DNA of 64,000 bases from Stegostoma tigrinum (taxonomy: Eukaryota), in the NCBI RefSeq assembly GCF_030684315.1, contig NC_081370.1, forward strand, positions 21,659,578 to 21,723,577, read 5' to 3'. The notes under the pieces are model-generated. The model searched no databases. It had not been told where the DNA came from and saw only the letters and a program-made list of their open reading frames with translations. Shown here one piece after another: positions 9,626-59,297 of the stretch. How positions within the stretch are numbered: position 1 is the stretch's first letter; every line of letters begins with the position of its first letter. Position numbers and translations under genes: made by a program.

Positions 9626-9674
9626 TTACTTCCAGCGGCCACCAACTTTGCCCTTGCCAGCACCCTTCTTGCTG
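9626..9674 (-). CDS. TNNT3: TNNT3 terminal coding exon (SKKGAGKGKVGGRWK*)
   Basis: tttgtag|C AGC AAG AAG GGT GCT GGC AAG GGC AAA GTT GGT GGC CGC TGG AAG TAA. Confidence 0.96.
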
Positions 9675-28660: not shown

Positions 28661-28743
28661 ATTTTTAAAAAATTTAAACTGTATCCATGGTGCCTCCTTG
28701 ATAGATATTCACTTTGTTGCTTTAATATCAATACAACACTCAC

Positions 28744-28860
28744 AATCCTCTCTTTCAGAGCAATCAGTTCCTCTTCTTCCTTCTTCCTATTCTCAAAATG
28801 AAGATCAATCAGGGCCTGTAGCTCAATCAGATCTTTGTTCTGACGCTTTTTCTGGATGTC
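28744..28860 (-). CDS. TNNT3: TNNT3 exon ([39 protein letters not shown]), 117 nt
   Basis: tttag|GAC ATC CAG...AGG ATT|gtgagt; tropomyosin-binding region. Confidence 0.97.
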
Positions 28861-30009
28861 CTAAATACGACACAAACACAGAAAAATCAGAGCAATAGAA
28901 TAAAAATCAGATCACAACTGAGTCATATACCACAAGTGAACAATACAGAGGAGGGCACAATGCTAATATATCTATACTATGATTTTTACTCCTTCTGAAT
29001 CTCTAGAAATGTACTAATTAATACAAATGTAACAGATATCATCAAAATCATATTGAGTGCAAAGTATAGTCCAGGAACTGTTGTATTAGACAAACACATT
29101 AATCTATTATTATGCAGGCACCTTATATATTTGATATATTCAAAGTTTACAACTAATTTGTTTTGGAGAAACAAAGCTATTTACTGCTAAGGATGCTCAC
29201 TTGATAACTTTATAACGTCTTTCAAGTATAGGAGGCATGAACTTACTGCTGACTTAAAGGAACTTCATTCAGTAATTTTCTCTAATAACTCTGAATAACT
29301 GGTTCATTACATCACTTCCCAACTGTAATGACCTGAAAGAAACAAAACCTCTTTGAGGCCATCTATTACTAGGATGTTCATGATGTATTGGAGATCACAA
29401 ATGTTTAAAAATTGCAAATGAGACCTGGATCAAGAAGTCCCACTCCTATTTCTAACTGATCCCATCTTTGCTGAGAAAGGAAGAGAGTGGGATGTCACCC
29501 ATGATTAAATCCAAACTCAGCATGACCAACTAAACATGGTACTCAGATTGTGTTTCCCTCAAAGTGATCCCATTTTTGCAAGGGTTTTAACCACTCTGTG
29601 GCAATTGTGAACTTTAAGAATCGTGAAAACTCTTGAAGGGAGGAGATGATCTGTGGAAGTGTCAAATGGTCTGGTTATTTGAATCCCCAGTCCTTTATGA
29701 ACTACACTAGCTGTTTGTTGTCATTTTTCCAAGGGCAATCATTATGTAATCCTTTCCGTTTCACAGTTTCCATAACTCAGTATTGGCTCATTAAAGTGTT
29801 GCAAGTTCACAGTTGATTGGCAACTCAAAAAGGTTATTAAAGACTGTTTATCTTTAATGCATCTTTATGAATGTTTATATTGGATTAAGGTCTTGCGGAA
29901 CTTATAGTCTTTTGAATGGGCTTCCATGAGTGGAAGTTTTTGTTAGCTATAGTAAAAGGTAACAGTGGACATTTTGAACTCCATTTTACTTAATCTAGAC
30001 ATTATTTCT

Positions 30010-30280
30010 GACGTCGATTACTACCTGAATGGCAATAAATTGGGAGAGGGGAGTGTGTAGCCGGACCTGTGCGTCATTGTGTACCAGTTGCTGAAGGTAA
30101 GCATGAGGGTGCAGCAGGTGGTAAAGAAGGCAAATTGTATGTTAGCCTTTGTTGTGAGACGTTTCGAGTACAGGAGCAGGGATGTGTTGCGGTAGTTATA
30201 CAGTACGTTGATGAGGCCACACCTAGAATACAGTTTTGGTCTCATTTTCTGTGGAGGGATGCTCTTGCTCTCAAGGGAGG
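30010..30280 (+). mobile_element. CR1 RT fragment
   Basis: gattactacctgaatggc...gaggccacacctagaata matches the CR1 RT C-terminal region. Confidence 0.75.
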
Positions 30281-31285
30281 CAGAATAAGAGGTGCTGCTC
30301 CTCCAGTTGTGGGGGGTGTCACTGAAACCTGACTGCCCCAGGTGACCCATTGTCTCTGCATGCTCCTGCCCCACTGAACTCGTCTCCTCTTAAATTCACT
30401 CTGTTTTCTCCCAACCTATGTCCAGGACACCAGCCACACCCTCCACCGCCTCCAAAACTTGCAAGTACCTGATTCCCCAACACCTCATCTTCGCTATGGA
30501 CCTCCAATCCCTGTACACTTACACCCATCACATGGATGGTCTAAAAGCCGTCCACTTCTTTCTTTCCCACAAGCCCAACCAGTCCCACTATACCAACACC
30601 CACATCTGCTTAACCAAACTCGTCCTTACCCTTAAACAACTTTTCCTTTAACTCCTCCCACTTCATACAGACTAAGGGGGTGGACATGAGCACCCACATG
30701 GGCCCACGCTGTACCCAGGATAGTAGGATACATGGAACACTTCCTTTCCTGCTGTTACACTGGCACTATCCCCCATCTCTTCCTCCTCTACATTGATAAT
30801 TGTATCGGTGTTGTCTCATGCTCCCAACAGGTGCTTGAATAGTTCAATTAATTTTACTAACACCTTTCACCTCAAGTTCAGATTCACCTGTACCATCTCC
30901 AATACCTCCCTCTCCTTCCTGGACCTCTCCATCTCCATCTTTGGTGACCACTCCAAAACTGGCATGTTTTAAGCCCCCCAACTCCCACAGCTATCTGGAC
31001 TTGCTCACCTTCCTGCAAGAATGTGATCCCCGACTCCCAATTCCTCTGCCTGCACCTCATCTGCTCCCAAGATGGGGCATTCCACTACTGCATATCCCAG
31101 ATGGCCTCGTATTTCAAGGACTGCAGCTCTTTCTACCCCACTCCCCAACCAGTGATTGAAATGCCCTCGCCCGCATCCCTTGAGTTTCCAGCACCTCTGC
31201 CTTCATATTCCCCACACCCCCACCAAAAATAAAGACAGAACCCCCTTTGTCCTCATACCACCCCACCAACCTCCACATCCAACTG
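30281..31285 (+). mobile_element. Degraded Penelope-like RT fragment with a short inverted 5' piece
   Basis: IFAMDLQSLYTY motif (ORF 30418..30651); colinear with 35450-36420. Confidence 0.82.
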
Positions 31286-31289
31286 TATT

Positions 31290-32400
31290 GGAAAAGTGAT
31301 AGGAATAGGAATAAACCATTTGGCCCCTCAAGCTTGTTCCACCTTACATCAGATTTGTCCTAATCTGCAACCTAACTCCCATCTTCCATAATACACTTAG
31401 ATAACAAAAACTATCAATGTCGGATTTAAAACTTCCAACTGATTTCCTAATTTCTACAATTCTTTAAGTAAAGTTTCCAAATTTTACTCCCGGAAGGTCT
31501 GGTCCTCAGGTTTAGATTATGCTTCTTCGTCCTGGAACTCACAGCCAGTGAGAGTAGTTTTCCCATATTTAATCCATTAAATTTGTAAAAACTTCCATCC
31601 AATCACCCTTCGTCCTTCTAAATGCCGGAGAATACAACACTTGTTTGTGTAGTTTCTGAAATTTAATCCTTTTCGTCCAGGCATTTTCTCATAAACTAAT
31701 GTTGTACTTTACGTGTGCACTTCCCAAGACCATACATGTACTTCCTTAGTTTGGTTTCCAGAACTGTTCAGTTTCCTTTAATCATTGTCTAGCTGAAACA
31801 TGACTTTACTCCTTAATAGTCTGATCTCCTCAACAAAGCGATCAGTGTTCCATTAATATTTTTGTTATTTTTGGTCATTGTTCATGACACTTTAAGGATT
31901 CATGTAAGTAGCTCCCTAAGCAATTTTTTAACCCCTACTGTTTCTAGCTTTACACCATTTGAAAGAATTTGTTTTGGGTCTTGGCTGGTGACCCCATTGG
32001 GGCCTAAATTGAAATCCATTTTGTCACAGTTTTCCCCATTCATGTCATATAAATACCCCCACTTTGTAATTTTACACTTGCATCTATATTGCTTACATGA
32101 CACTTTCATGTAGATATTCTGAAAAGATAGAAATAATGGCTCAAAGAGATTTTTGAACTTGTATCGTGATCTCATTGCTCCTTTTCTAGACAGGGAGAAA
32201 AACAATTATGCAGGATTTCTCCCTTCAGTACCCGTTACTGAGATGTGCACTTCCGGATATTGGTCAATGATACAATCTAAATTGGCATTATCTTGACAGG
32301 ATTACATAGTATACTGAAGCTAATTTTCTGCTTTCATTCATAACATTTTAACCCTTTATTAAGCTTCAGTGAATTGCTGCTGGTTGTAGTCCTTGCACCT
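31290..32400 (-). mobile_element. Degraded CR1 3' fragment
   Basis: aggaataaaccatttggcccctcaagc 3'UTR motif and downstream patches. Confidence 0.55.
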
Positions 32401-32605
32401 TGTTGAATACCTCCCTATAGGTGAGGAGTGGCGACTGCTTTGAGAAAGTAGAAAAAGTAGCTCTTCACTAAAGAATGATGAACTTACAATTATTGCCAAC
32501 ATTTGATAATGGATGTTAATGAATAAAAAAAATTTCAAGAAGCCATCGATGAAAAAGCAAGCATGTCAGTCATGAATCATTTGTTGGATAATTTCCTGTA
32601 CTCAC

Positions 32606-32651
32606 ATCAAAGTCAACTTTCTCTCCTTCTGGGATTTTGGGAGCAGTCAGC
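32606..32651 (-). CDS. TNNT3: TNNT3 exon (LTAPKIPEGEKVDFD), 46 nt
   Basis: ttttaacag|...|gtgagt; conserved troponin T peptide. Confidence 0.97.
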
Positions 32652-33605
32652 CTGTTAAAAATAAAGTAAGTAATGATACCTAGAACTTAGACTACAAAAG
32701 TTTTGGAAATGTTTTGGAAATTATTTCTTCATTTTGGTGAAAGATGTGTGTACTCTGGGGAATAAAACATTTTCAGTTTCAATTATCCTAACTTCTATTC
32801 CCATGGCTCTGTATTGATTACTTTTACTCACCACCACACTATTTTTTTTCACATTAAAGACTGCACCAACTTTCCAGATATGTGGGAAAATCTGATGGTC
32901 AGGGTTTGTCCACCCATTACACTAGCCTATACAAAGCCCTGAGATTTTCAAAGTCACAGAAGTGATAATGACACCCTCTATTTAAAAGTCATCATTGTGG
33001 TTCCTTGCAATGTTGCTATAATCCTATTCAGCGTCTTTCAGATCCACATATTGTCATTGTAGTCCCCACAATAATGCAATGTCCCTTCAGTTGTCTGGGT
33101 TAGTTCAGCAGGTCACTTTATTCTCAACCCCCAACCAAGGTATACCAAGAAAGACAGGGCAAGGTAATGAAAAGGAAACACAAACAAAGAGAAGAAAAAG
33201 ATATGACGAGAAGTCTAACACTTTTGCACTCCAATAATGGGGCGTGCTCAAAGTGAACAAATATCATAGAATTAAAGTTAGTTCCTTCGAGCAATGTTCA
33301 ATGCAGAAAACATGGGGAATCACATGCATTTGTCTGGAACTTAGAAAGAGACAGCCATTAAAGGTCAGATAGAGGTAAGGGTGAAGAGAACGGTGAAGAG
33401 AGAGTGAGACGGATGGCAAATAAATAAGGACGGAAGCAAAATTTTAAACCAGCAGAAGTGGGATGGAAAAAAACAACAGAAAGAAAAGGAAGTACGGTCT
33501 GAGAGAAAGACATATTAAACAAGGAACTGAAGGAGAAGTAAGAGAAAGAAGAGGGCCTACTCCTCCATTAAATAAACCTTCAAATTGTAACAAATCACTA
33601 CTCAC

Positions 33606-33627
33606 TTCATCCTTGGCTTCTCCTCCT
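33606..33627 (-). CDS. TNNT3: TNNT3 exon (EEEKPRMK)
   Basis: tttttctacag|AGGAGGAGAAGCCAAGGATGAA|gtgagt; equivalent of the amniote EEKPRPK exon. Confidence 0.92.
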
Positions 33628-34599
33628 CTGTAGAAAAATAAAAAAAACCGAAAAAATAAATTAGATACATGATCCAAAATCAAAAACAAAGTACAGCATC
33701 AAAATATTGTATTTTTAAAAATCTACTGCGTTGCAAATAAAATTATATGTTTCTTCTCAATTTTTTCTTTAATTTCCTGAAGGTGTTGACTCCTTGTTGG
33801 GACAGTCCTGCAGATGATGGATATTGTTCAATATCCGCACCAAATGCCAATTATTCAAGTGTGATTATTTATCAGTGTATAAGAGCAGTCTACTCATTCA
33901 CAGCAACAATCAGAGCTGAACCTGCTCCCATATGCACATATGATTCTCTCTCACAGACGTTTTCTATCATCTATTCTGGAATAGCAGTCAGAAACTAGGG
34001 GCCTGACTAATAATTTCTTCCTGGCCGATTAAGTGTTACCAAATATCTGAAACACTACCGAAACATAAGTCAACAGCTTTAGAACAAAATAGGAGCTGGG
34101 GAGGAAAATAAATAACAATTAAAAACACCGAGGAGATTACATTAACAAAATAGAACAGTGGTTTATCATTTTCAATAAAGTCAAAATTAACAAAATTGTG
34201 AGTTAAAGAGTGGCTGTGCTCTGGTTTGTCTGGTATGGCTAGGTAAGTCAATAGTTAACATACCAACAAAAATAAAATTGATTTTTAATAAGAACTCACA
34301 GGGAATGAGGCACTTCACAGATTTGATCAATTTTTCAAAGCATGGTGTATTTTATTCAGTTTTCAGCAGCAGAATATTGTGATTCTAGGATTCTCAAATT
34401 GTTAAATGTTAAAAGAGGTCAATTTTTATAAATTAATATTAATGGCAGACTTATCATCTGCTAATCCGGGGAATTAATCTGGTATAACAACAAAGAAAAG
34501 AACCTATGAACGGAGGCTCTATATTTCTACCATCCACCTGTAAACACAGCTAACAGCGAAATGCTCTCTCACTCATAACTTTAACCTCACTGTCTTGCC

Positions 34600-34826
34600 T
34601 GTAGTGACTGTAACAAGGTCAGCCAGTTGGACCGCATAGAAAATGAGTTCCTTGATTGGGGCTGCTAATCAGGGAGCCCTGGCTGATAGACAAAAACAGG
34701 AATTCAGACATCCTGCTCACTCTGAGATCTGGCTTTGAGAGAGCTGTATCAGTGTCGAGGACACTGCATGTGTAAATAAAGGGTGATTTGGTGACACGAT
34801 ACTGACCTCTGTGCGGAGTTATTTCA
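34600..34826 (+). mobile_element. Solo LTR (227 bp) with a 5-bp target-site duplication
   Basis: Begins TGTAGT, ends ATTTCA, internal AATAAA at about 34775, flanked by ttgcc at 34595-34599 and 34827-34831. Confidence 0.85.
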
Positions 34827-35239
34827 TTGCCTGGTAGAAGAACCTAAGTATTCAACAATCATGAAGTTTTTAAAAATTAGCTTTTGATGTTATAGGTGTT
34901 TACCCAATTAAATCACATATACTTTGAATAGCTTGAATTGAAGTTGTGTGTTGTATTTGTTTTGCCTCATTTGTTTACTATTTTGTGTACTGTGTTGGGG
35001 TCTTTGCCCAACATTAGTCTTAATTGCAACATCCGAGTAACGCCTGTAGCCTGATATAACTTCTTCCTAGTTTCCAAGCCTTAGGTACTGTGTATATGGA
35101 ACAACAATCCATCAAATTGTTCTCACTGCCACAACTGTTATTCAGCTATAGGTTGAGGAAGTCATGACGACAATAATGTTTGACATGAAATTAGTGCATT
35201 TGTCTTTTGCATCATCTATTCCAGTTTACAAGTCATTGG

Positions 35240-37358
35240 AGGTAATGGGAACTGCAGATGTTGGAGAATCCGAGATAACAAAGTGTAGAGTTTGATAAAC
35301 ACAACAGGCCAAGCAGCATCTTAGGAGCACCAAACCATCATCTCCCAAACCATCCACAACCTCATCACCTCAGGTGACCTCCCACCCACAGCCTCCAAAC
35401 TCATTGTTCCCCAACGCCACACCACCTGCTTCTATCTCCTTCCCAAAATCCACAAACCTGCCTGCCCTGGTCAACGCATTGTCTCCACCTGCTCCTGCCC
35501 CATCGAACTCATCTCCACCTATCTGGACTCCATCTTCTCCCCCTTGGTGCAGGAACTCCCTGCCTGCGTCTGTGACACCACCCACGCCCATCGACCTCCT
35601 CCAGAACTTCCAATTCCCCGGTCCCCAACACTTCGTTTTTACTATGGATGTCCAGCCACTATACACCCGCATTCCCCATGCACATGGCCGAAAGGCCCTC
35701 CACTTCTTCCTGTCCCACAGGCCCAACCAGTCCCCCTCTACTGACAGCCTCATCCAACTAGCCGAACTTGTCTTCACCTTCAACAACTTCTCTTTTGATT
35801 CCTCCCACTTCCTACAGACAAAGGGGGTGGCCATGGGTACCTGTATGGGCCCAAGCTATGCCTGCCTCTTTGTAGGTTACATGGAACAATCCCTCTTCCG
35901 AAGCTACACTGGCTCTAAACACCACCTCTTCCTCCGCTACATTGATGACTGTATCGGTGTCGCCTCATGCTCCGACGAGGAACTCGAACAGTGCATCCGC
36001 TTCACCAACACCTTCCACCCCAACCTCAAGTTCACCTGGACTATCTGTAACACCTCCCCCACCTTCCTGGACCTTTCTATCTCCATCTCAGGCAACCACC
36101 TAGAAACCGATATCCATTTCAAGCCCACCGACTCCCACCAACCTTCTTGCAAAAATGCCATCTCCTATTCTCAATTCCTTCGCCTCCGCTGCATCTGCTC
36201 CCAGGATGAGACATTCCACTCCTGTACATCTCAGATGTCCTCATTTTTCAAGGTCCGCAACATCCCCCCCCACCCCCCGCAGTGGTCGAGAATGCCCTCA
36301 ACCGTGTCTCCCATATTTCCCACAACTCAGCTCTCATGCTCTGTCCCCACAATAACAACCAAAACAGAATCCCCCTCGTCCTCACATACCACCCCACCAA
36401 CCTCTGGATCCAACGCATCATCCTCCGACACTTCCGCCATCTGCAATCCAACCCCACCACCAAAGGCATTTTTTCCTCCCCACTTTGTCTGCTTTCCTGA
36501 GGGACCACTCTCTCCGTGACTCCCTTGTCTGCTACACACTCCCCTCCAACCCCACCACACCCGGCACTTGTCCCTGCAACTGCAGGAAGTGCTACACCTG
36601 GCCCCATACCTCCTCCCTCACCCCCATCCCAGGCCCCAAGAAGACTTTGCACATCAAGCAGATTTTCACCAGCACCTCTGCAAATGTGGTATACTGCATC
36701 AGCTGTACCCATTGTGGCCTCCTCTACATCGGGGAAACCAAGCAGAGGCTTGGGGACCACTTTGCAGAACACTAATGCTCGATTCGCAATAAACAACTGC
36801 ACCACTCAGTCACAAACCATTTCAACTCCTCCTCCCATTCCTCAGATGACATGCCCATCCTGGGCCTCCTGCAGTGCCACAACGATGCCACCCGAAGGTT
36901 GCAGGAACAGCAACTCATATTCTGCTTGGGAACCCTGCAGCCCAATGGTATCAATGTGGATTTCACAAGCTTCAAAATCTCCCCTCCCACTACTGCATTC
37001 CAAAACCAGTCCAGCTCATCCCCACCTCCTTAACAGTTCATCCTCTCACCTATCCCTTCCTCCCACCTCAAGCCGCACCCCCTTTTCCTACCTAATAACC
37101 TCATCCTGCCCCCTTGACCTGTCCATCCTTTCCGGACTGACCTATCCCCTCCCTACCTCCCCACCTACACCTCTACTGGCTCCATCCCCACCTCTTTAAC
37201 TTGACTGTCTCCGCTCCACCTATCTTCTCCTCTATCCATCTTCGATCCACCTCTCCCTCCCCCTTTCTGATGAAGGGTCTTGGCCCGAAACTCAGCTTTT
37301 GTGCTCCTAAGATGCTGCTTGGCCTGCTGTGTTCATCCAGCTCCACACCTTGTATTAT
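35240..37358 (+). mobile_element. Penelope-like retroelement (RT plus GIY-YIG endonuclease), 5'-truncated, frameshifted, with inverted terminal segment
   Basis: ORF 35374..36519 (FTMDVQPLYT, KGVAMGTCMGPSYACLF, LRYIDD); ORF 36485..36775 (NVVYCISCTHCGLLYIGETKQRLGDHFAEH); 35240-35330 is an inverted copy of the 3' pLTR. Confidence 0.93.
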
Positions 37359-38545
37359 AGGTCATTGGACCCCTGTCCTTTTCATGCTGGTGTGCTGACC
37401 ATATAATTTGATGTCCACCAGCAACGCTGGCATAACATAGCAAAAAAAAATTAACCTCCAGTCATTATCACTGCAAAGAAGAATGATGGGGTGGGGTCTA
37501 AAGGAAACACAATTATCTTAGTACCACTACTTATCAATGGGACATGAGAACTGAACGGTCATTGAGATACAGTGGACCATTAAAAATGAATAAATACCCT
37601 ATCCTTGAAGCATGCTACCTTCAGAAAAAAGTGACAAACACTGCTTCCTGTTTGTTCACAAACACACTGGATAATCACACTGAAATGCAAAATTGCATCT
37701 TTTACACGTGAGGTCATGGTAATGAAAACCACACACACTGTTGTTCTTCCCAACTGAAGCAAAATGTTTGTACAGAACTTTCAACACTTATCCCAACATC
37801 AGGTCACATCGCTATTAAAGCTTGTTAAAATGATGATACCCTTTGACTGTACCAACTACCCATCTAGTAAGAGATGCATTTCCCATCATAAATGAAAAAT
37901 AAAGAGAAAAAGGTGGCAAAATGCACTCCTGCATGGTTTTTGTAAATAACTTTTCCATCTTAAAAGTATCCCCTTTGTCTTTTTCAAACAAAAGCATGGC
38001 AGGAGGTGCGTGCACATTAAATCCATTTTCCTTTTCCCCCAGCACTCCAACTTGTAGCCTTTTCCACAATTTAGCCGGAACTTCCTACTGTGGAGAAGGT
38101 CCACAGCCTTCTGCTAAAACTTCTATCAATATTGCTGATTGTGCAGCAATGTCACCCAACTAACATTTAACACCTTTATTTGTCACATCCTGCTACCAAC
38201 AATATCAGCAAAAACACACACTAAACACTCAAAGAAATTAGACTATTTTTGAAATGAAGACAGACTTATGAAACTGACAGTGTAATAGACAACATTAATA
38301 TTTTAGCAATTAACACTGTGAATAAAACCAAAAATAGCCAGGTTGTAAAGTTTTAATGAACACTGCAGTGAAATCTGTTAGTCAAAGTGCTTGCTGAATC
38401 CTGGAGCCATATAACGTTTTATATGGCTGCTATTGGATCATCTCAAGCCACGCATTTAGAAGAATTAACCTCAGAGAACTGGGGGAAGGGGAAGACAGTT
38501 AGAGTTCAGTGGGGTGAATTTACATTGATGATAAAGCAAAAATAC

Positions 38546-38569
38546 CGTCTTCTTCTTCGTTTCCATAAA
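38546..38569 (-). CDS. TNNT3: TNNT3 24-nt cassette microexon (VYGNEEED), fetal-exon position
   Basis: U-rich tract tgttttttgttgcaacgcacag|TTTATGGAAACGAAGAAGAAGACG|gtattt; phase 1-1. Confidence 0.72.
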
Positions 38570-39889
38570 CTGTGCGTTGCAACAAAAAACACAACAGAGC
38601 AAAACAAACGTTAAGTCAACGTATTCTGGACAGTTATTCCACTTAAGTGAAACTTGTAGGCTGACTGTGGGCTTGCACTGAGCCATATTGCTCTAAAGAT
38701 TCAAGGATCTAGGCACATTGTTGAATGGGAGTCGGAGTCAATCAATGTCTGATTTCAGTTGGATGCGTAGGTGATTGTACTCTGACTTATTTCTCACATT
38801 TAAATTAAACTAACTCTAGAGTTACTGAAGTTTCAGATAGGGCTCATTTTACAGGTTTCTCATTATCCTACCATTTTATTATCAATTAAACCCCTCTGTG
38901 TGATATTATCCTGCTTCATTCAGGCATGTTATGGTAGTTCAGAATCACCTGTACATAAAAGGAACCGCGTCAACATGAGCAGTGATTATGCTCGGTAAGA
39001 ATCAGCAATGTGAACATAAACAGCTGTCTTCTAACTTCCAACATAGCTTCAAACCTCTGAACCTTCTGATATGAACAACCACAAATCTGACCCTACATGT
39101 TCAAATATATTCATTACTTTTATAACTATATGTGAATAAAATGTTTCTGGATGTACATAAAATGAGACATATAAGCAATATTTCCTTATTTAGTTCTTTG
39201 CTAATGCTGTAACTCTCCATTCCTTGGCTACAATTACAAAATTGGAATTACATGTTGAACAGAACTGCCCGTAGATTATCGATGAGCAAAGTCGTCAGCT
39301 AAACAAATCTACTGATGTGCCACAATTATTAGATGCTAAAATATATAGACATCAACATACAAATATAGAACCTTCACAATTGAGATGCAGCTTTGGGTTC
39401 TGAAGATTATCAAAAACGTCCCACAAATTATAGATTCAATTATGCATTATTTAAATTAAATCCCAAATTGGTGGTTTAAAACTTAGACAACACCAAAATA
39501 AAACAAACGCCATTTCTTCCACACAATAATTTTTCAGAGCAGGATGATCAAGTTGCTTAATAAGGCTTTAAAATGTAAATTGAATATTAACATGATCACG
39601 AGAATCCAATATGGTGTTCGCCCGAGTCATGCATGCACCTTGAGAACATGGCAGCCTCTGCAAAGGCTCAGTTTACATAGTAGCAGGCAAGAATCAAGCG
39701 GAAAATGGATGTTAAGTTTTTGCACAGCTATGTTAACTAGGCTAGGCAAGTGGATCACAATTGCCTCCATTGTCACATGATCTGGCAGTATCAAAATGGA
39801 ACTGAACTGATGCACTCTTTGAAAATGAGGCTTAGAATAACTTAGAATCTGATGCATGATTGAAAAAAAAACAGCAGAGAATAACATAC

Positions 39890-39907
39890 CTTCTTCATGG
39901 TGTACTT
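39890..39907 (-). CDS. TNNT3: TNNT3 18-nt cassette microexon (EVHHEE)
   Basis: cgcacag|AAGTACACCATGAAGAAG|gtatgt; resembles the EVHE-type exon of amniote fast TnT. Confidence 0.82.
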
Positions 39908-40696
39908 CTGTGCGGGATCAGGTACATGCAGTGAGCAGCAAATACAAAGGAGCAAAAATATGTTATTATTAAGTGTTAAAGAGCCAAAAAAAAATCAGTG
40001 CAGCTGGCACAGGACTACCCAAGTTGAATCATCACACTGTTAAATTAAACATAAGCGGGACCCCTTTCCAGTTTCGCCAGATTACTCATTTTGCAAATAT
40101 CTATCCTTAGAATAATTATTAGCACTACAGTTAAATTTTGGAATTGCTTCTAGTGCTCACGTTAACAAATTACATTGAATAATCCTCCTTTCTATAGGAA
40201 ATAATGAAATACACCCCAATATATCACTGAACAAATAATGAAGATGATGGGTGATGTGCAGTCATTCAGGATATAGATGGATATACAATAATGATGAAGC
40301 ATCCAGAATGAATGAAGATGTTCAAGGATGAAAACTGATGCAAAATTCAAAGGATATGGTGCAATGAGAGATAATAATTCAGTGGAACGATTGTGCATGA
40401 TGGCATGGGAGAATTTTTTAAAAAATGAATATGATGAGAAGTGGAAATAAACAGAAAAGAGGCAAATAGTGATTAGAAGGAAGGAAATGCTAACAAAAGG
40501 AAAATTGAATGGAAGTAAAGCAGGAGAACGCAGGAAGGAGTCTGGACATTCCGATAGAAAGGAAATTGAGAATGAAGTAGAAAGAGAAATCACAAAAATA
40601 AGAATGGGAAAGTTCAAGAAAGAAAGAAAATAAAAAAGATATTAAGAAAAAAGTAGATGACAAAAGGTGAAGGAAAATGAATATTGCAGTACATAC

Positions 40697-40714
40697 CTTC
40701 TTCAATAACCTCTT
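40697..40714 (-). CDS. TNNT3: TNNT3 18-nt cassette microexon (EEVIEE)
   Basis: ctatag|AAGAGGTTATTGAAGAAG|gtatgt; paralogous to 46367-46384. Confidence 0.8.
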
Positions 40715-43700
40715 CTATAGATGGTGTTAATGGGCAGCAAGCAGTAAAGCATCAGTGCAGGGATTACAGGTGCAAGGTAGAAAAGCAGAAAAAAAAACTT
40801 ATTTATATCAGCGAAAAGCAGTACAAGATTGAAGAGAAGTCCTGAAGTTGCATTACATTCACTCTAATTTACTTGAGTGTTCTAATTTTAATAAATGGCA
40901 TGAGCCAAAACAAAACAAAACACAAGTTTCACTCAAACTCTCTTAAATTCTTGGCATTTCAGACATAAAAGCTTTCAACAGATGTAAGAACAGTTCTGTT
41001 TTGGTTCTCTGCTAATGCTTAGACATTCTTATCTCCTCAAATTTGAGTATGATGCGAAGTTATTTGGCACACAATGATGTTCAACATTGACTGTCCATGA
41101 AAAGAAAATGGACAAGCTCTCCAAAGTGGTCCCAAATTTTGAATGTTGGCAAAATACGGGGAGGGTAATATGATGTACAACTTTCACATTCGAGCCATTA
41201 CATTGGACCAAGAACATTAATTTCCAATTTCATTGGACAACCTTTGCTCAGAAAAACCAAAGATTGCTGTTTAGAATGTAAAGCACACCTCAACAGCATT
41301 GCGGATTAAGATTGTCACCTGTTACATTTCTGGTTGGACAGTCCACTTTCTGAGTGAGTTGTTTCAAATTTCTATATTGCATGTGAAGGTAAATATCACT
41401 TAGCATTTGATCTTCCAAAACCAGAGCCAATAATTTTCCTTGTAGACTTTTACATCTTTATATGTGGTAGTATTTAATTATTTTGTCTATTGATAAACTT
41501 TTATCAACAGATGGATTGCCCACAGTCCAAGTTAATGTGCAGAAAATACTAAGAAATGATAACAAACTAAAGCTTTATATAAATAATAAAGATGGAAGAG
41601 CAGGTTGAGTGTCTGGACTGCAGTATGTGGGAACATGAGAAAAGTGGGATTGTCCTGAGCAAAAACATCTGCAATCAATGAATCCAGCTTGAATCTCTTT
41701 GGTTCATTATCATTGAGCTGAAGCGTGAGTTGGGAAAAAATATGGATAAGGAGGAGTCAGAGCAATATCTGCACAGTTTGCTCCAGATTTGGGGAACTTC
41801 TGCCAGGCAAAAATAGGTTGTCACCCAAGCCAGGTTTGAACTGTCATATGGACAAGTGAATTGGGGTAATGAAACATGGCTGGAAAGGGGTATTCTATTT
41901 CATGGATTCCATATCAGACATCCTTCATTGACACTGGCTCTAAGTGAAACAGGCAGGGCCAGATATACAACGGGAAGAAAAAATAGGGTAGTCACAGTGT
42001 TAAACCAGCAAATGGGGAGGATTGAATTAAATGTGAAAGATTGTATAGATAATATCTTAAAAAGAAATGGTTGGGAAGACAATAGGGTATGCATCAGAAT
42101 TTGTCAATTAGGCACTGGAGGCTGAAGAAATTCTCAGATATGTAAAGCTAATGAGCCAGGAAAGAGAAACAGGGAACCGATGAATAAAACAGTGGAACAG
42201 AAGGTTCGGGTGTGCGGCCAATCTAAGCAATTGTAAAAATATAAATTAACAATTATTAGGGAACAAATAGTCTGAGTTACAGGCACAAATTCAACTTGGA
42301 AAATTTGACATGGTAGCTTTTACATGGCTGTGGGATAGCCAAGACTGGGAACTAAATGTACATTCTTATAATCTACAGGAAGGATAAGTGAAATAATAAA
42401 GCAGATCAAATTGTGTTTGCAATTAAGGATGAAATTACTTGAATATTATTAGTTTGTATAACGAAAAGTGTTCAAGCACCGAACACTGGATGAGTAGAAT
42501 TAAGAAGTAGAAGAGATTTAAGACACAGTGATAGCTGCAGTGAAGTGGTAACTTGTGAAAATGCTGAGAATAAACATGTATGTAATAAAGTCAGAGTGGT
42601 TTTCATGGGGACTTTAATTTTTGTATATATTGGGATAAACAGACTATCATGTCAGAAAGATATCGCAATTTTTGAGCATGTCTTGGACAATTTCTGCAAA
42701 ACCGTAACCTCAAATCAACAAGTTAAATTAGATTTAGTAATGAGACAGAGTCAACAATGCAATATCATTGAGCTACTAGGTTTCAACATAATGTTTGAAA
42801 AGGTGAAACATGAAACAACTACTATGACTCTAGGTTTAGCTAAAAATGCCTTCAATGAGATGAGGCAAACATGATCCAAAGCACACCGGACAAGTTTGTT
42901 ACTAAGTTAAAAAGCAGATCTTCGGTGGGAATGTTCAAAATGATTTTGACATGATTCAGAGCAGTCTATAATCTACTTGCAAAAATAGATAATCATGGAC
43001 AACCAATACAAAACTAAAAGAAAAAGCTTACAAATCTGCAAAAACAAAGCAGTGTTGGCAGATAGGAAAAATACAAAGATCAACAAATGTTGACGAAGAA
43101 ATAACTGGCATGTTGAATAATTAATTTGTATTAACGTTTACACTAGAGAAGAGGTCAACATGCCAGCTATCCCAAAGAAGCAATTAAATCAGGGAAAAAT
43201 AAGGTAAAAAATTGGAGTAAACAAAATATCAGTAAAAGCAAAATGAATGGCTTTAAAGAAGGTAAAAAAGACTAGACGATTTTCATCCCAAGATTTTAAA
43301 GGAAGCGGGTGAACACTCTATAGATTCTCCAACTACAATCTCTCACATTTTTTTGCTAATCAGAAACCATTTCTTTAGATTGCTAAGTTGTCACTGAGCT
43401 ACTTAAGAAAGCTGAGAAAGGTAAATCAATAAAATATAAACCAGTTAGTCTGACAATCAGTTGTTAGTGACACTGCTTGAATTTATAATTAAGGATGGGG
43501 TGACCAAATACCTTGAAAATGTGCAGGTAAACAGAGCCAGTGTGCTTGATGAATTTAACTGTATTTTTTTTACAGAGATGACCAAAAATGCCTGTTCACA
43601 ACAGCATGTTTATGGATATAGTTATATGGACTTTCAGGGCATATGAAAAAGTTTCTCATAAGTGATTGTTGGCTAAAGTTGAAACTAATTAAATTGAAGG

Positions 43701-44350
43701 GAAATTATTGGTCCAGTCAGGAAATTAGTTGAGGGGAAATGGAATGATGGGGACGTACTCTAATTGGCAGAATGTGATGAACTTATACTATATTAATTAT
43801 TTGTTAACTTAGGTTTTGGGATGGAAAGTTTATCCAAATGATACAAAAATAGATGGTATTGTATGAAACACGAGTGGAAGTGTCAAATCAGAAAATGATA
43901 TCTGATTATATATATTTCTTTATATCCAGAATAGCAGGCAAATTGGGAGTAGACAAAGCTCTAGTTTGACTACATCTAGTGTACCGTGAGCATTTCCTGA
44001 CACTACATTTCAGGAAGGCGATATTGGCCTTGGAGGAAGCACAATGTAAGTTCGTCAGGATGGCAAGTGGACTCTGTCAAACAATGGAAACTAGTGCTGT
44101 GATTTAAATGAATAAGGGTGATTTGGTCAAAGTTTTCAAAGTGGTACAGGAAACAGTTAGGATTTATTACTTGTGGCAACTGGCAGTAGGAGGCACAGTC
44201 TAACAATTAGCACCAAACCTTTCAGGTGTGAAATGAAGAAACACACCTTCATGTTGAGAATGGTAGAATTTTAGTGCTGTCTTCCAGATACAACAATTCA
44301 TGTCATATCAATTGCCATTTTATAACTGAAGTTCACATATTTTTGATAAG

Positions 44351-44588
44351 TGATAATGGGAACTGCAGATGCTGGAGAATCCAAGATAATAAAATGTGAG
44401 GCTGGATGAACACAGCAGGCCAAGCAGCATCTCAGGAGCACAAAAGCTGACGTTTCGGGCCTAGACCCTTCATCAGAGGATGAAGGCTCTGATGAAGGGT
44501 CTAGGCCCGAAACGTCAGCTTTTGTGCTCCTGAGATGCTGCTGGGCCTGCTGTGTTCATCCAGCCTCACATTTTATTATCTTGGATTC
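44351..44588. mobile_element. Young palindromic Penelope-terminus-derived element
   Basis: Arms 44377-44478 and 44487-44588 are reverse complements with one mismatch and an 8-nt spacer; sequence matches the pLTR of 35240-37358. Confidence 0.92.
44485..44520 (+). ncRNA. Minimal type I hammerhead ribozyme motif (mirror copy on the minus strand, 44445-44478)
   Basis: ggct-CTGATGA-a-GGGT-ctag-GCCC-GAAAC-GTC-agct: core boxes, stem II, loopless palindromic stem III, GUC cleavage triplet ending at 44516. Confidence 0.7.
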
Positions 44589-45325
44589 ACAGATTTTTGT
44601 TAGTCAAATGTATTAAATGGCATGGGCAAAGATGGATATGTGGAGTTAACAGCCACAAACTTACGGAATAACATAAAAGGATTGAGGGCTAAATGAACAA
44701 CTCCTGTTAGTATTTTCCCATACATTGCCAGAATTCTGGTTGCAATGTCCCTATCACTCAGCTCCCCTTCTCCTAAACTCTGTTTTGGTTTTGACACATT
44801 AAAAAGATGTCAGTATAATTTAGATTATATTCTGTAGGTAAACACTTGTTCACAGCAGTCAGTTCCCCTCTCAATTTGAAGCCAGTCTCTTGACTCCCAT
44901 GTATTAAATCTGTGTCCAACTGTTTTCCTCCAGATAGCCCCACTAAGAAAAGATCTTTATTAGAATTTGAGCATGTTTTTTCTCTTCTAACGAAGTTTTA
45001 ACAAACAGGAAGTTTACAATAAGCATCCTTACAATAGGTTGTGAAATTATTTGTTTTTGAGTAATGTCATAGTTATCGCTAATTAATGAAGCCCAAATAT
45101 CAATCAGACAAGTACCTCAGACGTGAATAGGGCCCAGTTAAGATAGTGCTAAGTGGGAATAGAGCAAGAACAGAGTAACAAATCTCTATGCAACTATGTT
45201 AACATAGTTTACCAAGGCAGGAGAGTTAAAATGGTCCCCATTATCACTAAATCCAAATTTCCCAAAATATACCTAGTCCAAATGTTTCCTGAAAAGGAGA
45301 ATTGGACTAACAGACAGCAACATAC

Positions 45326-45343
45326 CTTCTTCGATGTATGCTT
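45326..45343 (-). CDS. TNNT3: TNNT3 18-nt cassette microexon (EAYIEE)
   Basis: tctcccag|AAGCATACATCGAAGAAG|gtatgt; phase 1-1. Confidence 0.78.
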
Positions 45344-46366
45344 CTGGGAGATGGCAGGGACATGCAGCAAGGTGCAAATACATAGAAGCAAAATCCATGT
45401 TAATACTGAGCACCGGAGAGCAAAAGGTAACAACATGGCAGACATGAGACACCAGGAAGAATCAACAAATCATTCAACAGAATTCAAGAGGTCCACCATT
45501 CTAGCAACACTAAGTTTAACAGCTCCAAGGCAGTGTAGTCCTTGAACAATTAATAGTGCTTAATTAATTCTTTGCAATATCTCTTAGCTGCATTATCAAA
45601 AGTTGCTTAAACAACTCCTTCTTAAAATTGCTGAATATCTATAAGAAATGACATCAATGGAAATGTAAGACATCACATCATGAATGGACATCATGAATTG
45701 CATAATGATATGCAACATTGGTAATAACCATGGAAACAGAATGATTAGGGTAAGGCAGGATAGAGGGAGGGAAAGGATACAAATAGATTGAAGGAGATAT
45801 TGAAGGATGCACAATAATCAGGATGAGGATGTAGAATGGTTACAGATAATTATGGAAACAGACTTATTGAGGATGACAAAAACTACAAGATTAATGTGGA
45901 TATTTTAGAATACAGAGTGATTGAGGATAGTCAAGGAAATACAAATTTGAGAATTATGAAACAAAGATTTATTTGAGATTATGTAGGTTACACAATGTGG
46001 AGAATAATGGAGGGTACATAACATTGAGGATAATGGAATATACAGAACTATAGAACAAGGTTAACTAAGCATAAAAAAGTGAAGGTGGAATAAAGAAACA
46101 AAGAGGAACAATAAAAGGGGAAATTGTGATTGAGGAAAGATAAACGGCAGAAGGGCAGAATGAAAAATGCAAAACAGTAGAATGAAGAAAATAATCAACA
46201 TACCAATGGAAAAGAAAGGGAGAGAATTTTTTTTTGAAAAGATGAAATTATATAAGAACTCAGGAGATGAAGAATCAGAAATGATCAGAATGATGAAAAG
46301 GAAAAATGAGTGAGTAAAGACAGATAAACAAATGAAATATGGGATTATGTTAGATGCACTACATAC

Positions 46367-46384
46367 CTTCTTCAGGAACCTCTT
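46367..46384 (-). CDS. TNNT3: TNNT3 18-nt cassette microexon (EEVPEE)
   Basis: cttcag|AAGAGGTTCCTGAAGAAG|gtatgt; phase 1-1. Confidence 0.82.
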
Positions 46385-47404
46385 CTGAAGGTGATATTAG
46401 CATGTAGCAAGCAGATAAGCAGCAGTGCATAAAATCAAAAGACACAAGATGGAAAAGCAGAAAAGAATTATTTTGACATAAGTATATCAGGAGGGACTGG
46501 TATATAATTAAAAATAGATTGGCTAAAGAGCAAAATACCACACCTTTACACCATTAAAACAACTTCCACTGCAATTCACTTCAGCATGCATAAAAACAAA
46601 CTAATTGTTGAAATAAATGCCAACTGTGTTGCACTTGAACCCAAACAAAATCAAACGCAAGTATCATTCCAACACCCTTAAATTCCTGACATTTCAGATT
46701 TACTCCTTTGCTAAAAGGTAATCAAAACAACCTAACTGGCAAATGTTCAAATGTAGAACCATCTTCCTCAATACTATTATTAAGCTTGAAACCTGCATTG
46801 CAGAATTCTAAAAACAAATCAATTCATTGTTCTAGCTACATGAAATTGTTTAATATATAATCTTCGATTTGTTGAATATGGACAGGGCAGCAAGAGTTGG
46901 GCGACAGTGAAATTGTCGCCTTCATTGCCTTTGAATTTGGAAAACAATGTGCGTGGCAAAAATCCATTTTGAATGACACTACCATGGTTGAAAAGAATAG
47001 AACAAAATGCTAGATAATTGAGAAATAGTGACCATTAAGTGCCAAATTGGATTTTGAAAATCTGAATGTGAATTTGAAAATCTGGCTTGGCTGATTTTTA
47101 AGCATAAAGATGGTGAGTTAGTGAACTCTTATAGTAACACTTTGCAATGGAATGCACTTAAAATCAGTTTTGAGAAGGTACATTTATGAGGAGGGCCAAC
47201 TGTGCTCAAGATCAAAGATTCTCTTACATCTCAAGCAGTTCCATTCACTGTGAAACATGACAATCAAGATGAATTCCACAACACTGAAACATAGTTACAA
47301 ACTGAAATGTTAAACTCCAAATTTACTCAGCAATCAGTTATAGTTATATATTTATTTATGTTTTCAAATTGAAACCAATGTGAAACCATGATCTCTGCAG
47401 AAAG

Positions 47405-47622
47405 GGGTGGTTTACCTCAGTTGGCTGGCAGTTGGTTTGCAAAGTAGTGTGATGCCAATAGCATGGGGTCAATCCCCTCACCGACTGACATTGCCACGAA
47501 GGACTCTCCTTCTAAATCTCTCCCCTCACCTGAGGAGCGATGGCACTCAGGTTAATTCACCACCAGTCACCTCTCTTTAATGAGAGAGTAGCCTATGGTG
47601 TGGTAAGGCTATGGTGACTTGA
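47405..47622 (+). mobile_element. tRNA-derived SINE
   Basis: A/B-box-like head tacctcagttggctgg...ggggtcaatccc; the same head recurs at about 10932. Confidence 0.55.
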
Positions 47623-47729
47623 ATTGATTTTCAAAAACCTACAATGAATTGTTTTGGGACATAATTCAAATTCATTTTGACTTTGTACTTTTATAACCAA
47701 TCTCTTTGTCTCTGTGGCATCTTTATACA

Positions 47730-48520
47730 CTCACTTAAAACTGTACCAGAGAACCAATAGGTACATAAGTATTTCTTCTTGAAATTAAGAGGGAGATCCC
47801 TGATGACTGAAGATACCAAAGAGATTTTGGCAGAATGGAATGTCACAAATGTACGCCTACAATTAAAGGAAGAGAGAAAATGTAGAGTACGAATATACAT
47901 CAGGGAAAATGTTATAAAGGATGCAACATCTATAGACTTAGAAAATAATGATATGCTTGTGAAGAGACAACACATGATGACAGGGAAATCAAGTTTGATA
48001 AACATGTTAGATTTTTTTGGTGAAGTATGGATGTGGAAGTAGTTGTTGTTGTGTATTTGGATTTTTGGAAAGTTTTTGATCGGGTCTTGCACAGTAGATT
48101 ATTGAGTGAAGATCTCTTGGGCTGAGAGATAATATACCAGTGCAGATTAGAAATTGGTTAACTGACAGATTGCAGAGGGCTAGAATAAATAGGTCAATCT
48201 CAGATGACAGGCTGTCACTAGTGGGTGTTGCAAAGAATAGTGCTTGGACTAAAACGTTCATAACCTCCACAAATGATTTGAAATGTGGGGATCAAATGAA
48301 ATATTTACAATTTGTTAATGACACCAAACCAGGTAGGGATATGATTTGTGAGGAGAGTGTAATGAAGCTTTAGCAGGTTAACTGAATGTGCCGGAACATG
48401 GAAGATGGAATATAATGTGAATAAATGTGAAGTTATCCACTTTGGTAGATAAAAAAAATGCAGAGTATTTCCTAAATGGTGAGAGTTTGGAATATATTGA
48501 TACCAGAAGAATCTGTAGAT
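47730..48520 (+). mobile_element. CR1 RT fragment
   Basis: GKSSLINMLDFF and IRNWLTDRLQR remnants. Confidence 0.75.
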
Positions 48521-48789
48521 ACTAGGTGAGGGTAAGATTAGGCTTTCTTGTGATGCTGCAAGTCAGATCCTACCTATGCTCATATATGGAGGAGTCTCCA
48601 GTGGCTAAGACACAGGAGAAAAAAAAATAGAAGTTTTGTAGCTAGTTTAAAAAGAACAATTCTAAAATGCCTGCTTTTTGTGATATCATAAACATTAAGA
48701 GTGCTGGAATTGTTTTCGTGGTGTTAAGCTATATAAGTAAAAGATGGCATTGGGAAAAACAAAGAACAGTTAGAAATCGTCTTCATTAC

Positions 48790-48813
48790 CTCCCTCTTCA
48801 TGTTCTTCATGTT
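48790..48813 (-). CDS. TNNT3: TNNT3 24-nt cassette microexon (EHEEHEEG)
   Basis: ttacag|AACATGAAGAACATGAAGAGGGAG|gtaatg; phase 1-1, Glu/His rich. Confidence 0.8.
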
Positions 48814-49179: not shown

Positions 49180-49328
49180 TGGGAACTGGCAATGCTGGAG
49201 AATCTGAGATAACAAGGTGTAGAGCTGGATGAACACAGCAGGCCAAGCTGCATGACCAAGCTCTCCTGCTCCTCTGATGTTGCTTGGCCTGCTATGTTCA
49301 TCCAGTTCTACACCTTGTTATCTCAGAT
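49180..49328. mobile_element. Short fold-back Penelope-terminus element lacking the ribozyme core
   Basis: atctgagataacaaggtgtagagctggatgaac ... gttcatccagttctacaccttgttatctcagat inverted arms. Confidence 0.85.
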
Positions 49329-54997: not shown

Positions 54998-55005
54998 CTT
55001 CGTAC
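54998..55005 (-). CDS. TNNT3: TNNT3 8-nt microexon (V-Y-E)
   Basis: tcttctctttcag|GTACGAAG|gtaagt, with an ACTAAC branch-like motif at 55030-55035. Required to convert phase 2 to phase 1. Confidence 0.88.
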
Positions 55006-55240: not shown

Positions 55241-55260
55241 ACTTCTTCAGTGTCAGACAT
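55241..55260 (-). CDS. TNNT3: TNNT3 first coding exon (MSDTEEV; whole exon 55241-55281 includes 5'UTR)
   Basis: Minus strand ttcttgcag|ATCTAAAGGGCTCAGTTGAAG ATG TCT GAC ACT GAA GAA GT|gtaagt. Confidence 0.93.
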
Positions 55261-56722
55261 CTTCAACTGAGCCCTTTAGATCTGCAAGAACCAAAGAGAG
55301 AATATCAATGAGAATGGCCTACATGGACCATCCTCTTCAGTTTTACAATTTAAAGAATGCGTTATGTAATGAAAACCACCAACAGAAATAGCCTCACTAA
55401 CAGTGCAGAGCTAATGTCGCCTTTTTTGATATTGTCAACAAACATTCAGGCAAAATAGCCCGGCCGTTAATACAGGAATCCGAGTAGCTGCAGTAGCAGC
55501 TTTCCATAGAATTGACACCTCTCTGATCTATCCATACACTGGTGGAAATATCCATTTATATTTTCTGCACGGCCCATTTGGGAATAGGAACGTAAGATGG
55601 TGGGCTCTGTTCCATTTCCCTGATACGCACAGTGGCTGGAATAGGATGAGGAATATCTTGGAAATATACCTCAACAATAGTTTCGAACTTTCCTGTGCGT
55701 TCTGGATTTGTCTTTTTTCCCGAAAAGATTTGCGGGAAAGAAAGCTGCCCACTCTCAAACAGCATTCTTGATTCATTCCAAGTCGAGGGGACCGGACAAG
55801 GAAAGCAACATTCAGGGGCACTATCCGGTAAAACGGTTTTCCAGACAAAAGGACGCCTCCTCAGTCAAAGAGGTTCTCCCGTTGTTTCTCGTTTGGGAAA
55901 AGCCGCCAGCATCGATGTCCTGTAGCGTTTACGCCGTTCTCGCTTCCCTTCCGCTGAAGTTAGGACGGAAGATTCTGTGTAAATTCGCTTTCCGCGACAA
56001 CTCGTGTGCTTTAACATTTTTTAAAAATATCAAGCAGCGCACTGGGGATGCGGGGAGATCTGAACTAAAAACAGAAAACTGCTGGAGAAACTCAATAGGT
56101 CTGGCAGCATGTGGGAGGGCTAGAAACAGAGTTCGTGTTTTGAGTCCGATATAACTGCTGAGTTTCTTCAGCACTTTTCTGTCCGTCATTGGAAGCATGG
56201 CAGGAAATCCCTTTTCATGCTCGTCCCGCAGACATAGTTATATTTCTTTGGCATGTTGCCTGGTATTTGACCTGATAATATCGGTTCGTGGTGGGGTACT
56301 GTACTAAACCTGACTTTAGAACCCTGCACTCTGCTCGTTCTAGCGTGAGGAGTGAGGGTCTATGTAACTGTAGGGCATGGCAGTCAAGGCTTGGCTGAGA
56401 TCTAACATAGAGAAAAGACGGTAGGCACCTGCTGGTTTTGTGTACCTCAGGTACAAAGCTGAATGAGGAAAAAAAATCGTTTTCTAATACTTGAGCTGAT
56501 TATTGCACGTTCTTATGGTACAACACCCCCAAAACAATCTCGGTATGTGAAAACAATATAAAAATCTCAAATTTCCTACAGTATATGAAAATGTGCATTC
56601 AAGGTGTATTTTGATGGCATCATTGATATAGAAACCAATAAAACAGATGTACTGATGTAGAAAATGGACACAATTAAATCCAAATCAAATAAATGTCTCC
56701 ACTTGTCATGTTGTTTCCTTAC

Positions 56723-58777: not shown

Positions 58778-59077
58778 AAAAATTTCTGCTGGTTTTGCAG
58801 GTGGTAGCCCAACCTTCACAGAATGAAATCCCCAAGGATAAATCATCAATATTTTCCCCTCTGAACTGTCCTGCTTTGTGCATTGTCATTGTTTTCAGAG
58901 CTTTTGTTTCTGATTTCCAGCATTTAATGTTTTATTTATTTAGCGTTATGCCCTCTCTGTGCGATCTGCGTGGGTGTCTATAAACAATCAATTTATTTAG
59001 CCAGGAATTTGACATTCAAACTACAGCGGATTATAGAATGTGCGCCTCCCATCTCCCCCAATCATGCTTTTGTTTTC

Positions 59078-59297
59078 TAAGATAACAAAGTGGATGCTGG
59101 ATGAACACAGCAGGCCAAGCAGCATCTTAGGAGCACAAAAGCTGACGTTTCGGGCCTAGACCCTTCATCAGATGATTCATTTTTCATTTCAAACGTCAGC
59201 TTTTGTGCTCCTGAGATGCTGCTTGGCCTGTTGTGTTCATCCAGCCCCACACTTTGTTATCTTGGATTCTCCAGCATCTGCACTTCCCATTATCTCT
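59078..59297. mobile_element. Fold-back Penelope-terminus element; intact hammerhead core on the minus strand (59140-59171)
   Basis: Inverted arms; minus strand reads ctgatgaagggtctaggcccgaaacgtcagct. Confidence 0.88.

Follow-up and report, generated by a model that had tools for sequence, protein, structure and literature searches.

Troponin T is a textbook case of a protein whose N-terminus has grown through small exons. The troponin T gene of the zebra shark, Stegostoma tigrinum, raises the question of how such growth takes place, as it carries two pairs of very short, acidic and mutually similar exons a few kilobases apart. Are these pairs copies of one another, at what point in the history of sharks and rays did they arise, and are they put to use as separate pieces of the protein? 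We addressed these questions in a stretch of 64,000 nucleotides (hereafter the window, to which all coordinates refer) and in the proteins and gene models of other cartilaginous fishes. The reading that we prefer, with a probability of roughly 0.8, is that one tandem duplication of a 1.3-1.6 kb two-exon block took place in the ancestor of sharks and rays, and that the resulting exons likely serve as separately spliced modules that adjust how long and how negatively charged the N-terminus is.

A fast skeletal troponin T gene with a variable N-terminal region

A troponin T gene occupies the minus strand of the window, its start codon lying at 55260 and its stop near 9626. Compared singly, its five core exons agree with S. 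tigrinum tnnt3a (XP_048401411.2) at 169 of 169 residues and with the whale shark at 167 of 169, and the two core exons submitted to Pfam both score above its cut-off for Troponin (PF00992). Within the best 120 protein hits, all gene-named matches are fast skeletal troponin T, an assignment based on similarity rather than on a tree. The gene also contains a pair of 41-nt C-terminal exons, one or the other of which is used by each intact shark model; paired 14-residue C-terminal exons, numbered 16 and 17, are a TNNT3 feature (PMC5062619, in excerpt). By these sequence comparisons, the window gene is tnnt3, encoding fast skeletal troponin T. No reading frame for TNNI2, LSP1 or PRR33, the genes expected in synteny with TNNT3, was noticed among the 33 open reading frames of at least 110 aa in the window.

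Between an 8-nt exon and a 22-nt exon lies a variable region of six phase-1 exons, in transcript order X (24 nt), B1, B2, A1, A2 (18 nt each) and Y (24 nt). The exons of the gene are as follows.

55241..55281, minus strand: first coding exon, start codon at 55260
54998..55005, minus strand: 8-nt exon that puts the variable region in phase 1; consistent with the N-terminus of the whale shark
48790..48813, minus strand: alternative exon X, 24 nt, phase 1-1, EHEEHEEG, upstream of and outside the duplication; same peptide in catshark models
46367..46384, minus strand: microexon B1, 18 nt, phase 1-1, EEVPEE; counterparts in catshark, white shark, electric ray and skate models
45326..45343, minus strand: microexon B2, 18 nt, phase 1-1, EAYIEE; identical in sawshark P0157, related in skate, electric ray and catshark
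40697..40714, minus strand: microexon A1, 18 nt, phase 1-1, EEVIEE; counterparts in catshark, white shark, skate and electric ray
39890..39907, minus strand: microexon A2, 18 nt, phase 1-1, EVHHEE; VH[H/Q]EE in 11 of 17 elasmobranch species checked
38546..38569, minus strand: alternative exon Y, 24 nt, phase 1-1, VYGNEEED, downstream of and outside the duplication; same peptide in catshark models
33606..33627, minus strand: 22-nt exon closing the variable region
32606-32651, 28744-28860, 25061-25138, 24463-24576, 23835-23944 and 20236-20326, minus strand: core exons
16087-16127 and 14893-14933, minus strand: two 41-nt C-terminal exons, the TNNT3 exon 16/17 pair
9626..9674, minus strand: last exon, coding part

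Microexons are frame-keeping exons of up to 27 nt, and B1, B2, A1 and A2 all have the length, the symmetric phase and the canonical splice sites of this class, with AG and GTATGT at the borders of each. In the window, all four keep the frame, contain no stop, have strong donors and encode conserved peptides. Each starts with AAG directly after the AG, creating a tandem acceptor, and each contributes three to four acidic residues, A2 being the sole exon of the four to bear an HH pair. Sixteen of 18 nt are identical between B1 and A1, and 13 of 18 between B2 and A2. Inspection of the exons upholds what the first-pass annotation of this DNA had said of them, namely their number, positions, 18-nt length, phase 1, AG/GTATGT borders and the 16/18 pair.

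Two copies of a two-exon block

The same annotation had proposed that the exon pairs arose by duplication of a whole cassette, introns included. Self-blastn, local alignment and intron-only shuffle tests agree on this point and delimit two copies.

45131..46698, minus strand: copy B, the earlier of the two units in transcript order (local alignment, blastn, shuffle tests)
39665..40963, minus strand: copy A, the later of the two units in transcript order (local alignment, blastn, shuffle tests)

Self-blastn of the whole 64-kb window returned three colinear matches between A and B (E values of 9e-8, 1e-12 and 2e-9) and no third partner for either segment. The best of these matches reaches 81%, and no near-identical tract is found between the copies. 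According to one local alignment, the duplicated unit is about 200 nt longer than originally proposed.

For the intron-only test, the 400 nt beside each exon were compared in all 28 pairs among eight small exons, with 200 local-window shuffles. The significant intronic alignment that a whole-cassette duplication predicts is present in the upstream introns (z of 12-20): B1/A1 scores z = 19.7 and B2/A2 z = 11.8, values reached by none of the 200 shuffles, and 25 of the 26 non-cognate upstream pairs stay within the shuffles, B2/A1 alone rising weakly above them (z = 3.7). In the downstream 400 nt, neither cognate pair is significant under strict scoring (z = 1.0). With a softer matrix, significance appears midway through the internal intron (z = 5.8-8.2) and again beyond the second exon (z = 9.5-18.8); the 100 nt directly following each donor give a weak signal (z = 2.0 and 1.7), and two control introns are not significant (z = 1.2 and 0.9). 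The internal introns measure 1023 nt in B and 789 nt in A, a difference of 234 nt, and the copies differ by many gaps; gapped intron identities are not taken as dates, because controls reach 62-75% over short spans.

Within the 64-kb window, the similarity of A and B does not come from a dispersed repeat or from low complexity, and an Rfam search over 33000-56000 for a structured RNA behind the intron conservation gave no match. A and B are a tandem duplication of a two-exon block, lying on the same strand and colinear through their introns. Membership of X and Y in the duplication is ruled out, as neither has intron similarity. An older step from one exon to two, with B1 resembling B2, is likewise unsupported: non-cognate exons share 10-12 of 18 letters and their flanks 12-16 of 60, only the B2/A1 pair giving the weak signal reported above.

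The copies are separated by a spacer of 4.2 kb, which contains one recognisable element.

43272..44259, plus strand: decayed LINE (nhmmer, profile from three LINE copies of the window)

The element is recovered as two pieces, at 43272-43777 (E = 1e-14) and 43953-44259 (E = 4e-6). An old CR1 had been placed between the copies on first reading; a decayed LINE is indeed there, homologous to LINE copies elsewhere in the window, and its label as CR1 or CR1-like, based on motifs, is putative. Pfam gave no passing match on eight spacer fragments. The spacer also holds a short repeat pair in opposite orientation at about 44350-44590.

Counterparts in other sharks and rays

In three further species, four exons sit between X and the closing exons. 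Their peptides read, in order, EEIAEE, DANAEE, EEVVQE and EVHHEE in the catshark; EEFAEE, EAYAEE, EEVVAE and VHHEE in the electric ray (Narcine); and EEEVAQE, ETYAEE, EEVAAEE and EVHQEE in the thorny skate (Amblyraja radiata). All four are present in catshark P0158 and, in order, in the Logan proteins P0166, P0285, P0287 and P0288, and the EAYIEE of sawshark model P0157 is the B2 peptide of the window. Residues specific to one exon sort by position rather than by species, as seen with the Tyr of B2 (window, sawshark, skate and electric ray) and the VH[H/Q] of A2.

Proteins of 17 named elasmobranch species were checked, the large protein clusters being sampled in part (15 of 39 and 15 of 23 members). 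All four exons were found in three species and none in five, four of which have truncated, mis-built or short models; a B2 assignment in Rhinoraja depends on a loosened pattern and was not counted. In the white shark, 21 of 21 models are without B2, and the other three exons are annotated; the sequences examined from the whale, bamboo and zebra sharks have none of the exons. Length varies as well. B1 and A1 measure 21 nt in skates and 18 nt in sharks, and catshark A1 occurs in forms of five and six residues, which fit the tandem acceptor of the window exons.

Eight read-through gene models from seven species expose intron flanks of the matching type. Six of the read-through peptides (horn shark, sawfish, manta, two skates and sawshark) agree with the flanks of B2/A2 in 8-13 of 18-20 codons, and one sawshark peptide agrees with those of B1/A1 in 10-12 of 20, with a further short model at 3-4 of 6; against the flanks of other exons, such peptides reach at most 5 of 20 codons. 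The flanks that precede EVH[H/Q]EE elsewhere resemble the B2 flank of the window as much as the A2 flank, or more, so both the paralogy and the flank constraint are ancient. The shared age derives from low-complexity peptides of 5-8 residues together with the translated flanks of mis-built models.

Age of the duplication

Outgroups bracket the event from the other side. In Callorhinchus, isoform subtraction leaves at most two exons (nine and six residues) between X and Y in 13 of 13 sequences, and the models of sturgeon, paddlefish and bichir have one 14-residue module at the position of the cassette. Two exons in the chimaera models point to an elasmobranch-specific appearance, and the recurrence of the four exons in unchanged order in catshark, thorny skate and electric ray points to a duplication older than the shark-ray split. 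The duplication likely arose once, after the divergence of chimaeras and before that of sharks and rays, or approximately 421-306 Ma by the split dates in the excerpted PMC3692497; this dating is based on gene models rather than genomes, and chimaeras may have lost a copy or carry unannotated exons. The expansion had at first been called lineage-specific. This description is apt for sharks and rays taken as a whole, given the two exons of the chimaera models, and does not hold for a species, genus or order, given the counterparts in catshark, skate and electric ray.

Intron sequence that can still be aligned between the copies might speak for a recent duplication confined to the lineage of the window shark, and the nearest relatives are uninformative in this respect, since the exons are absent from the whale, bamboo and zebra shark sequences examined. 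Yet a matching set of four exons in the same order in catshark, skate and electric ray, the identical B2 peptide of the sawshark and the many gaps and 234-nt difference in internal-intron length between the copies render so young an age extremely improbable. An origin at the opposite extreme, before the cartilaginous fishes or at least before the chimaera split, would require that one copy has been lost or goes unseen in chimaeras (and bony fishes). In tetrapods, TNNT3 carries at least five short acidic exons of a similar kind at this position (excerpt of PMC2447309), and the read-through flank of the first Callorhinchus exon is equally close to B1 and A1, with scores of 22 and 21 that no other of the 2062 AG sites in the window reaches. 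We nevertheless consider this origin unlikely, as two exons in chimaera and a single 14-residue module in sturgeon, paddlefish and bichir fit one ancestral unit, and as introns become less likely to remain alignable with such age.

The cassette could also have doubled independently in sharks and rays, or its copies could have been kept alike by gene conversion. The region amplifies readily, exon X being repeated about six times in the white shark, and conversion or parallel change could explain why B1 and A1 agree in length within skates (21 nt) and within sharks (18 nt). Against this stand the position-specific residues common to sharks and rays and, in the window, copies whose best blastn match is 81% and between which no near-identical tract is found, so that we regard parallel doubling or conversion as very unlikely. 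A single duplication in the shark-ray ancestor is the reading that we carry forward.

Selection on exons and flanks

Purifying selection on the exons, set among diverged introns, was part of the original interpretation. A contrast between the two copies gives it no significant support: identity is 29/36 (81%) in the exons versus 130/190 (68%) in the 3′ splice-site flanks (Fisher p = 0.17) and versus 378/571 in the middle of the introns (p = 0.10). Four codons have changed between the copies, all of them altering the residue, and the Glu codons are unchanged. It is the retention of frame, length class and peptide across species that argues for purifying selection. As for the introns, they have diverged in part, but the approximately 55 nt preceding the exons are conserved out to rays.

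Splicing and use of the four exons

Exons symmetric in phase 1 may be combined freely without loss of frame. Twenty inclusion patterns appear in 21 catshark models and 11 in 12 skate models, although most of these isoforms are computed RefSeq models and may overstate the combinations. All four exons occur together in four of five skate-like Logan proteins, three of 12 Amblyraja models and two of 21 catshark models; Logan P0286 skips X and A1, and Logan P0078 skips all four. Logan contigs are at most 1195 nt long, too short to contain the introns, and so come from spliced RNA. Given the co-occurrence of all four exons in the skate-like Logan proteins, the copies are additive rather than mutually exclusive, and the exons appear to be included combinatorially.

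We infer that the four exons are spliced in the zebra shark too. Of ten contig runs presumed to be RNA, which shared 4-13% of words with the window, four (X1, X2, X5 and X9) were aligned to 28740-48739 at 80% likeness. Repeats dominate these alignments and no listed junction falls at a microexon, 18-nt pieces being probably too short to place; one 947-nt contig of run X5 spans the 117-nt exon. That some of the four are silent remnants in this species might be read from the zebra shark model examined, which begins after the variable region. The same model, however, is also without the start exon and the constitutive 8-nt exon and is thus simply truncated, and the unbroken frame, strong donors and conserved peptides of the four exons further reduce silence to a very small probability.

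The sequences preceding the exons may bear on their regulation. YGCY motifs number 6, 6, 6 and 3 per 100 nt before the four exons, compared with a window average of 0.95 and with 1-2 per 100 nt before X, Y and the closing exon; the baseline for this enrichment is formed by the whole window and the splice sites of these three other exons. TGCATG precedes B2 and A2.

A possible route to a tunable N-terminus

The duplication would probably have come about by unequal crossing-over, with the LINE either inserting later or already residing in the spacer. The 3′ splice-site flanks copied along with the exons, which are YGCY-rich and carry TGCATG ahead of B2 and A2, could be read by MBNL- and RBFOX-type proteins. 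Each exon, when included, would add three to four acidic residues to the N-terminal segment and, in the case of A2, also two His. In mammals and birds, this segment of troponin T binds no myofilament protein, lowers tropomyosin affinity remotely and is developmentally switched (PMC5062619 and PMC11016001, both in excerpt). By analogy, the acidic segment of sharks may lower tropomyosin affinity at a distance and thereby fine-tune contraction.

A bolder extension, which we offer tentatively and rate at somewhat below even odds, is that the shark-ray ancestor doubled an ancestral two-exon module of jawed vertebrates together with its splicing code, that the four copies gained distinct switching by muscle or stage that has been kept for >300 million years, and that white and basking sharks later amplified the region again, yielding a His/Glu repeat that resembles the Tx segment of birds. 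If true, elasmobranch tnnt3 would offer a dated natural experiment in the regulatory splitting of duplicated microexons, and a metal-binding tail of the Tx type would not be unique to birds.

Relation to annotation and to known systems

Automated annotation had been expected to miss these exons. This applies to one zebra shark sequence, which starts after the whole variable region, and to one whale shark sequence, which skips that region, but not to the catshark, skate and white shark models, the last with three of the four. In the RefSeq tnnt3a isoforms of Scyliorhinus canicula (at least X5-X50), A. radiata (X1-X12) and Carcharodon carcharias, the exons are already coding sequence; no statement of an origin by cassette duplication was found in these isoform sets. 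We also found no paper on the N-terminal exons of elasmobranch tnnt3, a weak negative in that subscription journals and supplements were mostly outside the search. The main text of PMC9741552, on tandem duplicated exon substitutions, contains no mention of TNNT3 or troponin, and the word 'exon' has no occurrence in PMC9825255, on vertebrate TNNT evolution. The cassette is apparently an unreported instance of a well-known process. What it adds is intron evidence that the copied unit was a block of two exons, a probable dating to the elasmobranch stem, a correction of the N-terminus in the truncated zebra shark model, and conserved flanks at the splice sites, open to testing.

One close likeness is with mammalian TNNT3, whose exons 4-8 and fetal exon are, in the same region of the same gene, short, acidic, of the same phase and combinatorially included between constant exons (PMC2447309 and PMC5062619, in excerpt); in the human gene, these same-phase alternative exons have been attributed to exon shuffling (PMC2447309, in excerpt). 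In the shark, by contrast, the introns still betray the paralogy and the duplicated unit comprises two exons, slow shark genomes preserving the trace of an event likely erased in faster lineages. One-to-one orthology between shark and mammalian exons is not demonstrable from such short peptides. Tandem duplicated exon substitutions (PMC9741552, in excerpt) share with the cassette an ancient origin by tandem duplication and an occurrence in a muscle gene, but the shark copies are added together rather than swapped, all four being present in one skate transcript.

Birds provide the other comparison. The P exons of avian TNNT3, which encode the Tx segment, comprise up to seven tandem exons with His/Glu repeats of the form AHH[A/E]E (PMC11016001 and PMC7581897, in excerpt). 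There too, the N-terminus of fast troponin T has grown in a restricted lineage through tandem small exons rich in Glu and His. However, where the avian segment, which binds transition metals, is defined by four to seven tandem His-rich AHH[A/E]E pentapeptides, only one exon of the shark's four carries HH, and in place of seven near-identical five-residue units the shark has two diverged two-exon copies with a single His pair, in A2. The shark duplication is likely far older, and it is the repeated exon X of the white shark, rather than the cassette, that is the nearer analogue of Tx.

Splice sites around the microexons

A tandem NAGNAG-type acceptor, which permits a 15-nt form, is present at all four 18-nt microexons of the duplicated block (B1, B2, A1 and A2; window 46384, 45343, 40714 and 39907). 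This short form is used by the counterpart of A1 in catshark and is probably in use in the A2 counterpart of the electric ray. Far upstream, the strongest donor ahead of the start codon lies at window 62517 (minus strand) and is likely to mark the end of a non-coding first exon.

About 260 nt downstream of A2, window 39560-39660 carries two overlapping TGCATG motifs. The bin holding this pair has depth from contigs of the sequencing runs X2 and X5, with a loose end of X2 falling at 39616; given this depth and the loose end, either a conserved element or a repeat may lie here. No Rfam match was obtained for 39560-39660.

Other repeats in the window

35299-37200, one copy of a repeat with a reverse-transcriptase-like frame
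30325-31283, a second copy of the same repeat, 71% alike

The two copies, whose frame is unlike that of the LINE between the cassette copies, sit in the introns flanking the 22-nt exon (33606-33627, minus strand) and the 46-nt exon (32606-32651, minus strand) on either side, and this repeat is very abundant in the sequencing runs aligned to 28740-48739. Short interspersed repeats are recurrently paired head-to-head or tail-to-tail (44377-44588, 59076-59300 and 49180-49327), with 96% self-complementarity in the pair at 44377-44588.

Gene models of relatives

Many elasmobranch tnnt3 models have a truncated or intron-derived N-terminus:
P0133, Stegostoma
P0106, P0112, P0152 and P0154, Mustelus
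P0151, P0153, P0145, P0156, P0284, P0157 and P0282, further models

In the window, read-through ahead of A2 runs into a stop, and such read-through is therefore unlikely to represent real protein. The Chiloscyllium punctatum model P0140 combines tnnt3 and a DJ-1/PfpI-domain protein in one product, probably because a gene next door was wrongly merged into it.

Exon X and its counterparts in other sharks

48790-48813 (minus strand), exon X, the single counterpart of the His/Glu run of white and basking sharks

Exon X starts with an exact 9-nt internal repeat, creating a possible second acceptor through which a 15-nt form could arise. In its place, the Carcharodon carcharias models P0147 and P0125 have six tandem 8-residue His/Glu units, each gained or omitted whole across models, and the partial Cetorhinus maximus model P0142 has a similar run. 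This shark repeat, perhaps of greater interest than the two-exon duplication itself, resembles the Tx segment of bird TNNT3 (PMC11016001, PMC7581897), which passages of the reviews term avian-specific.
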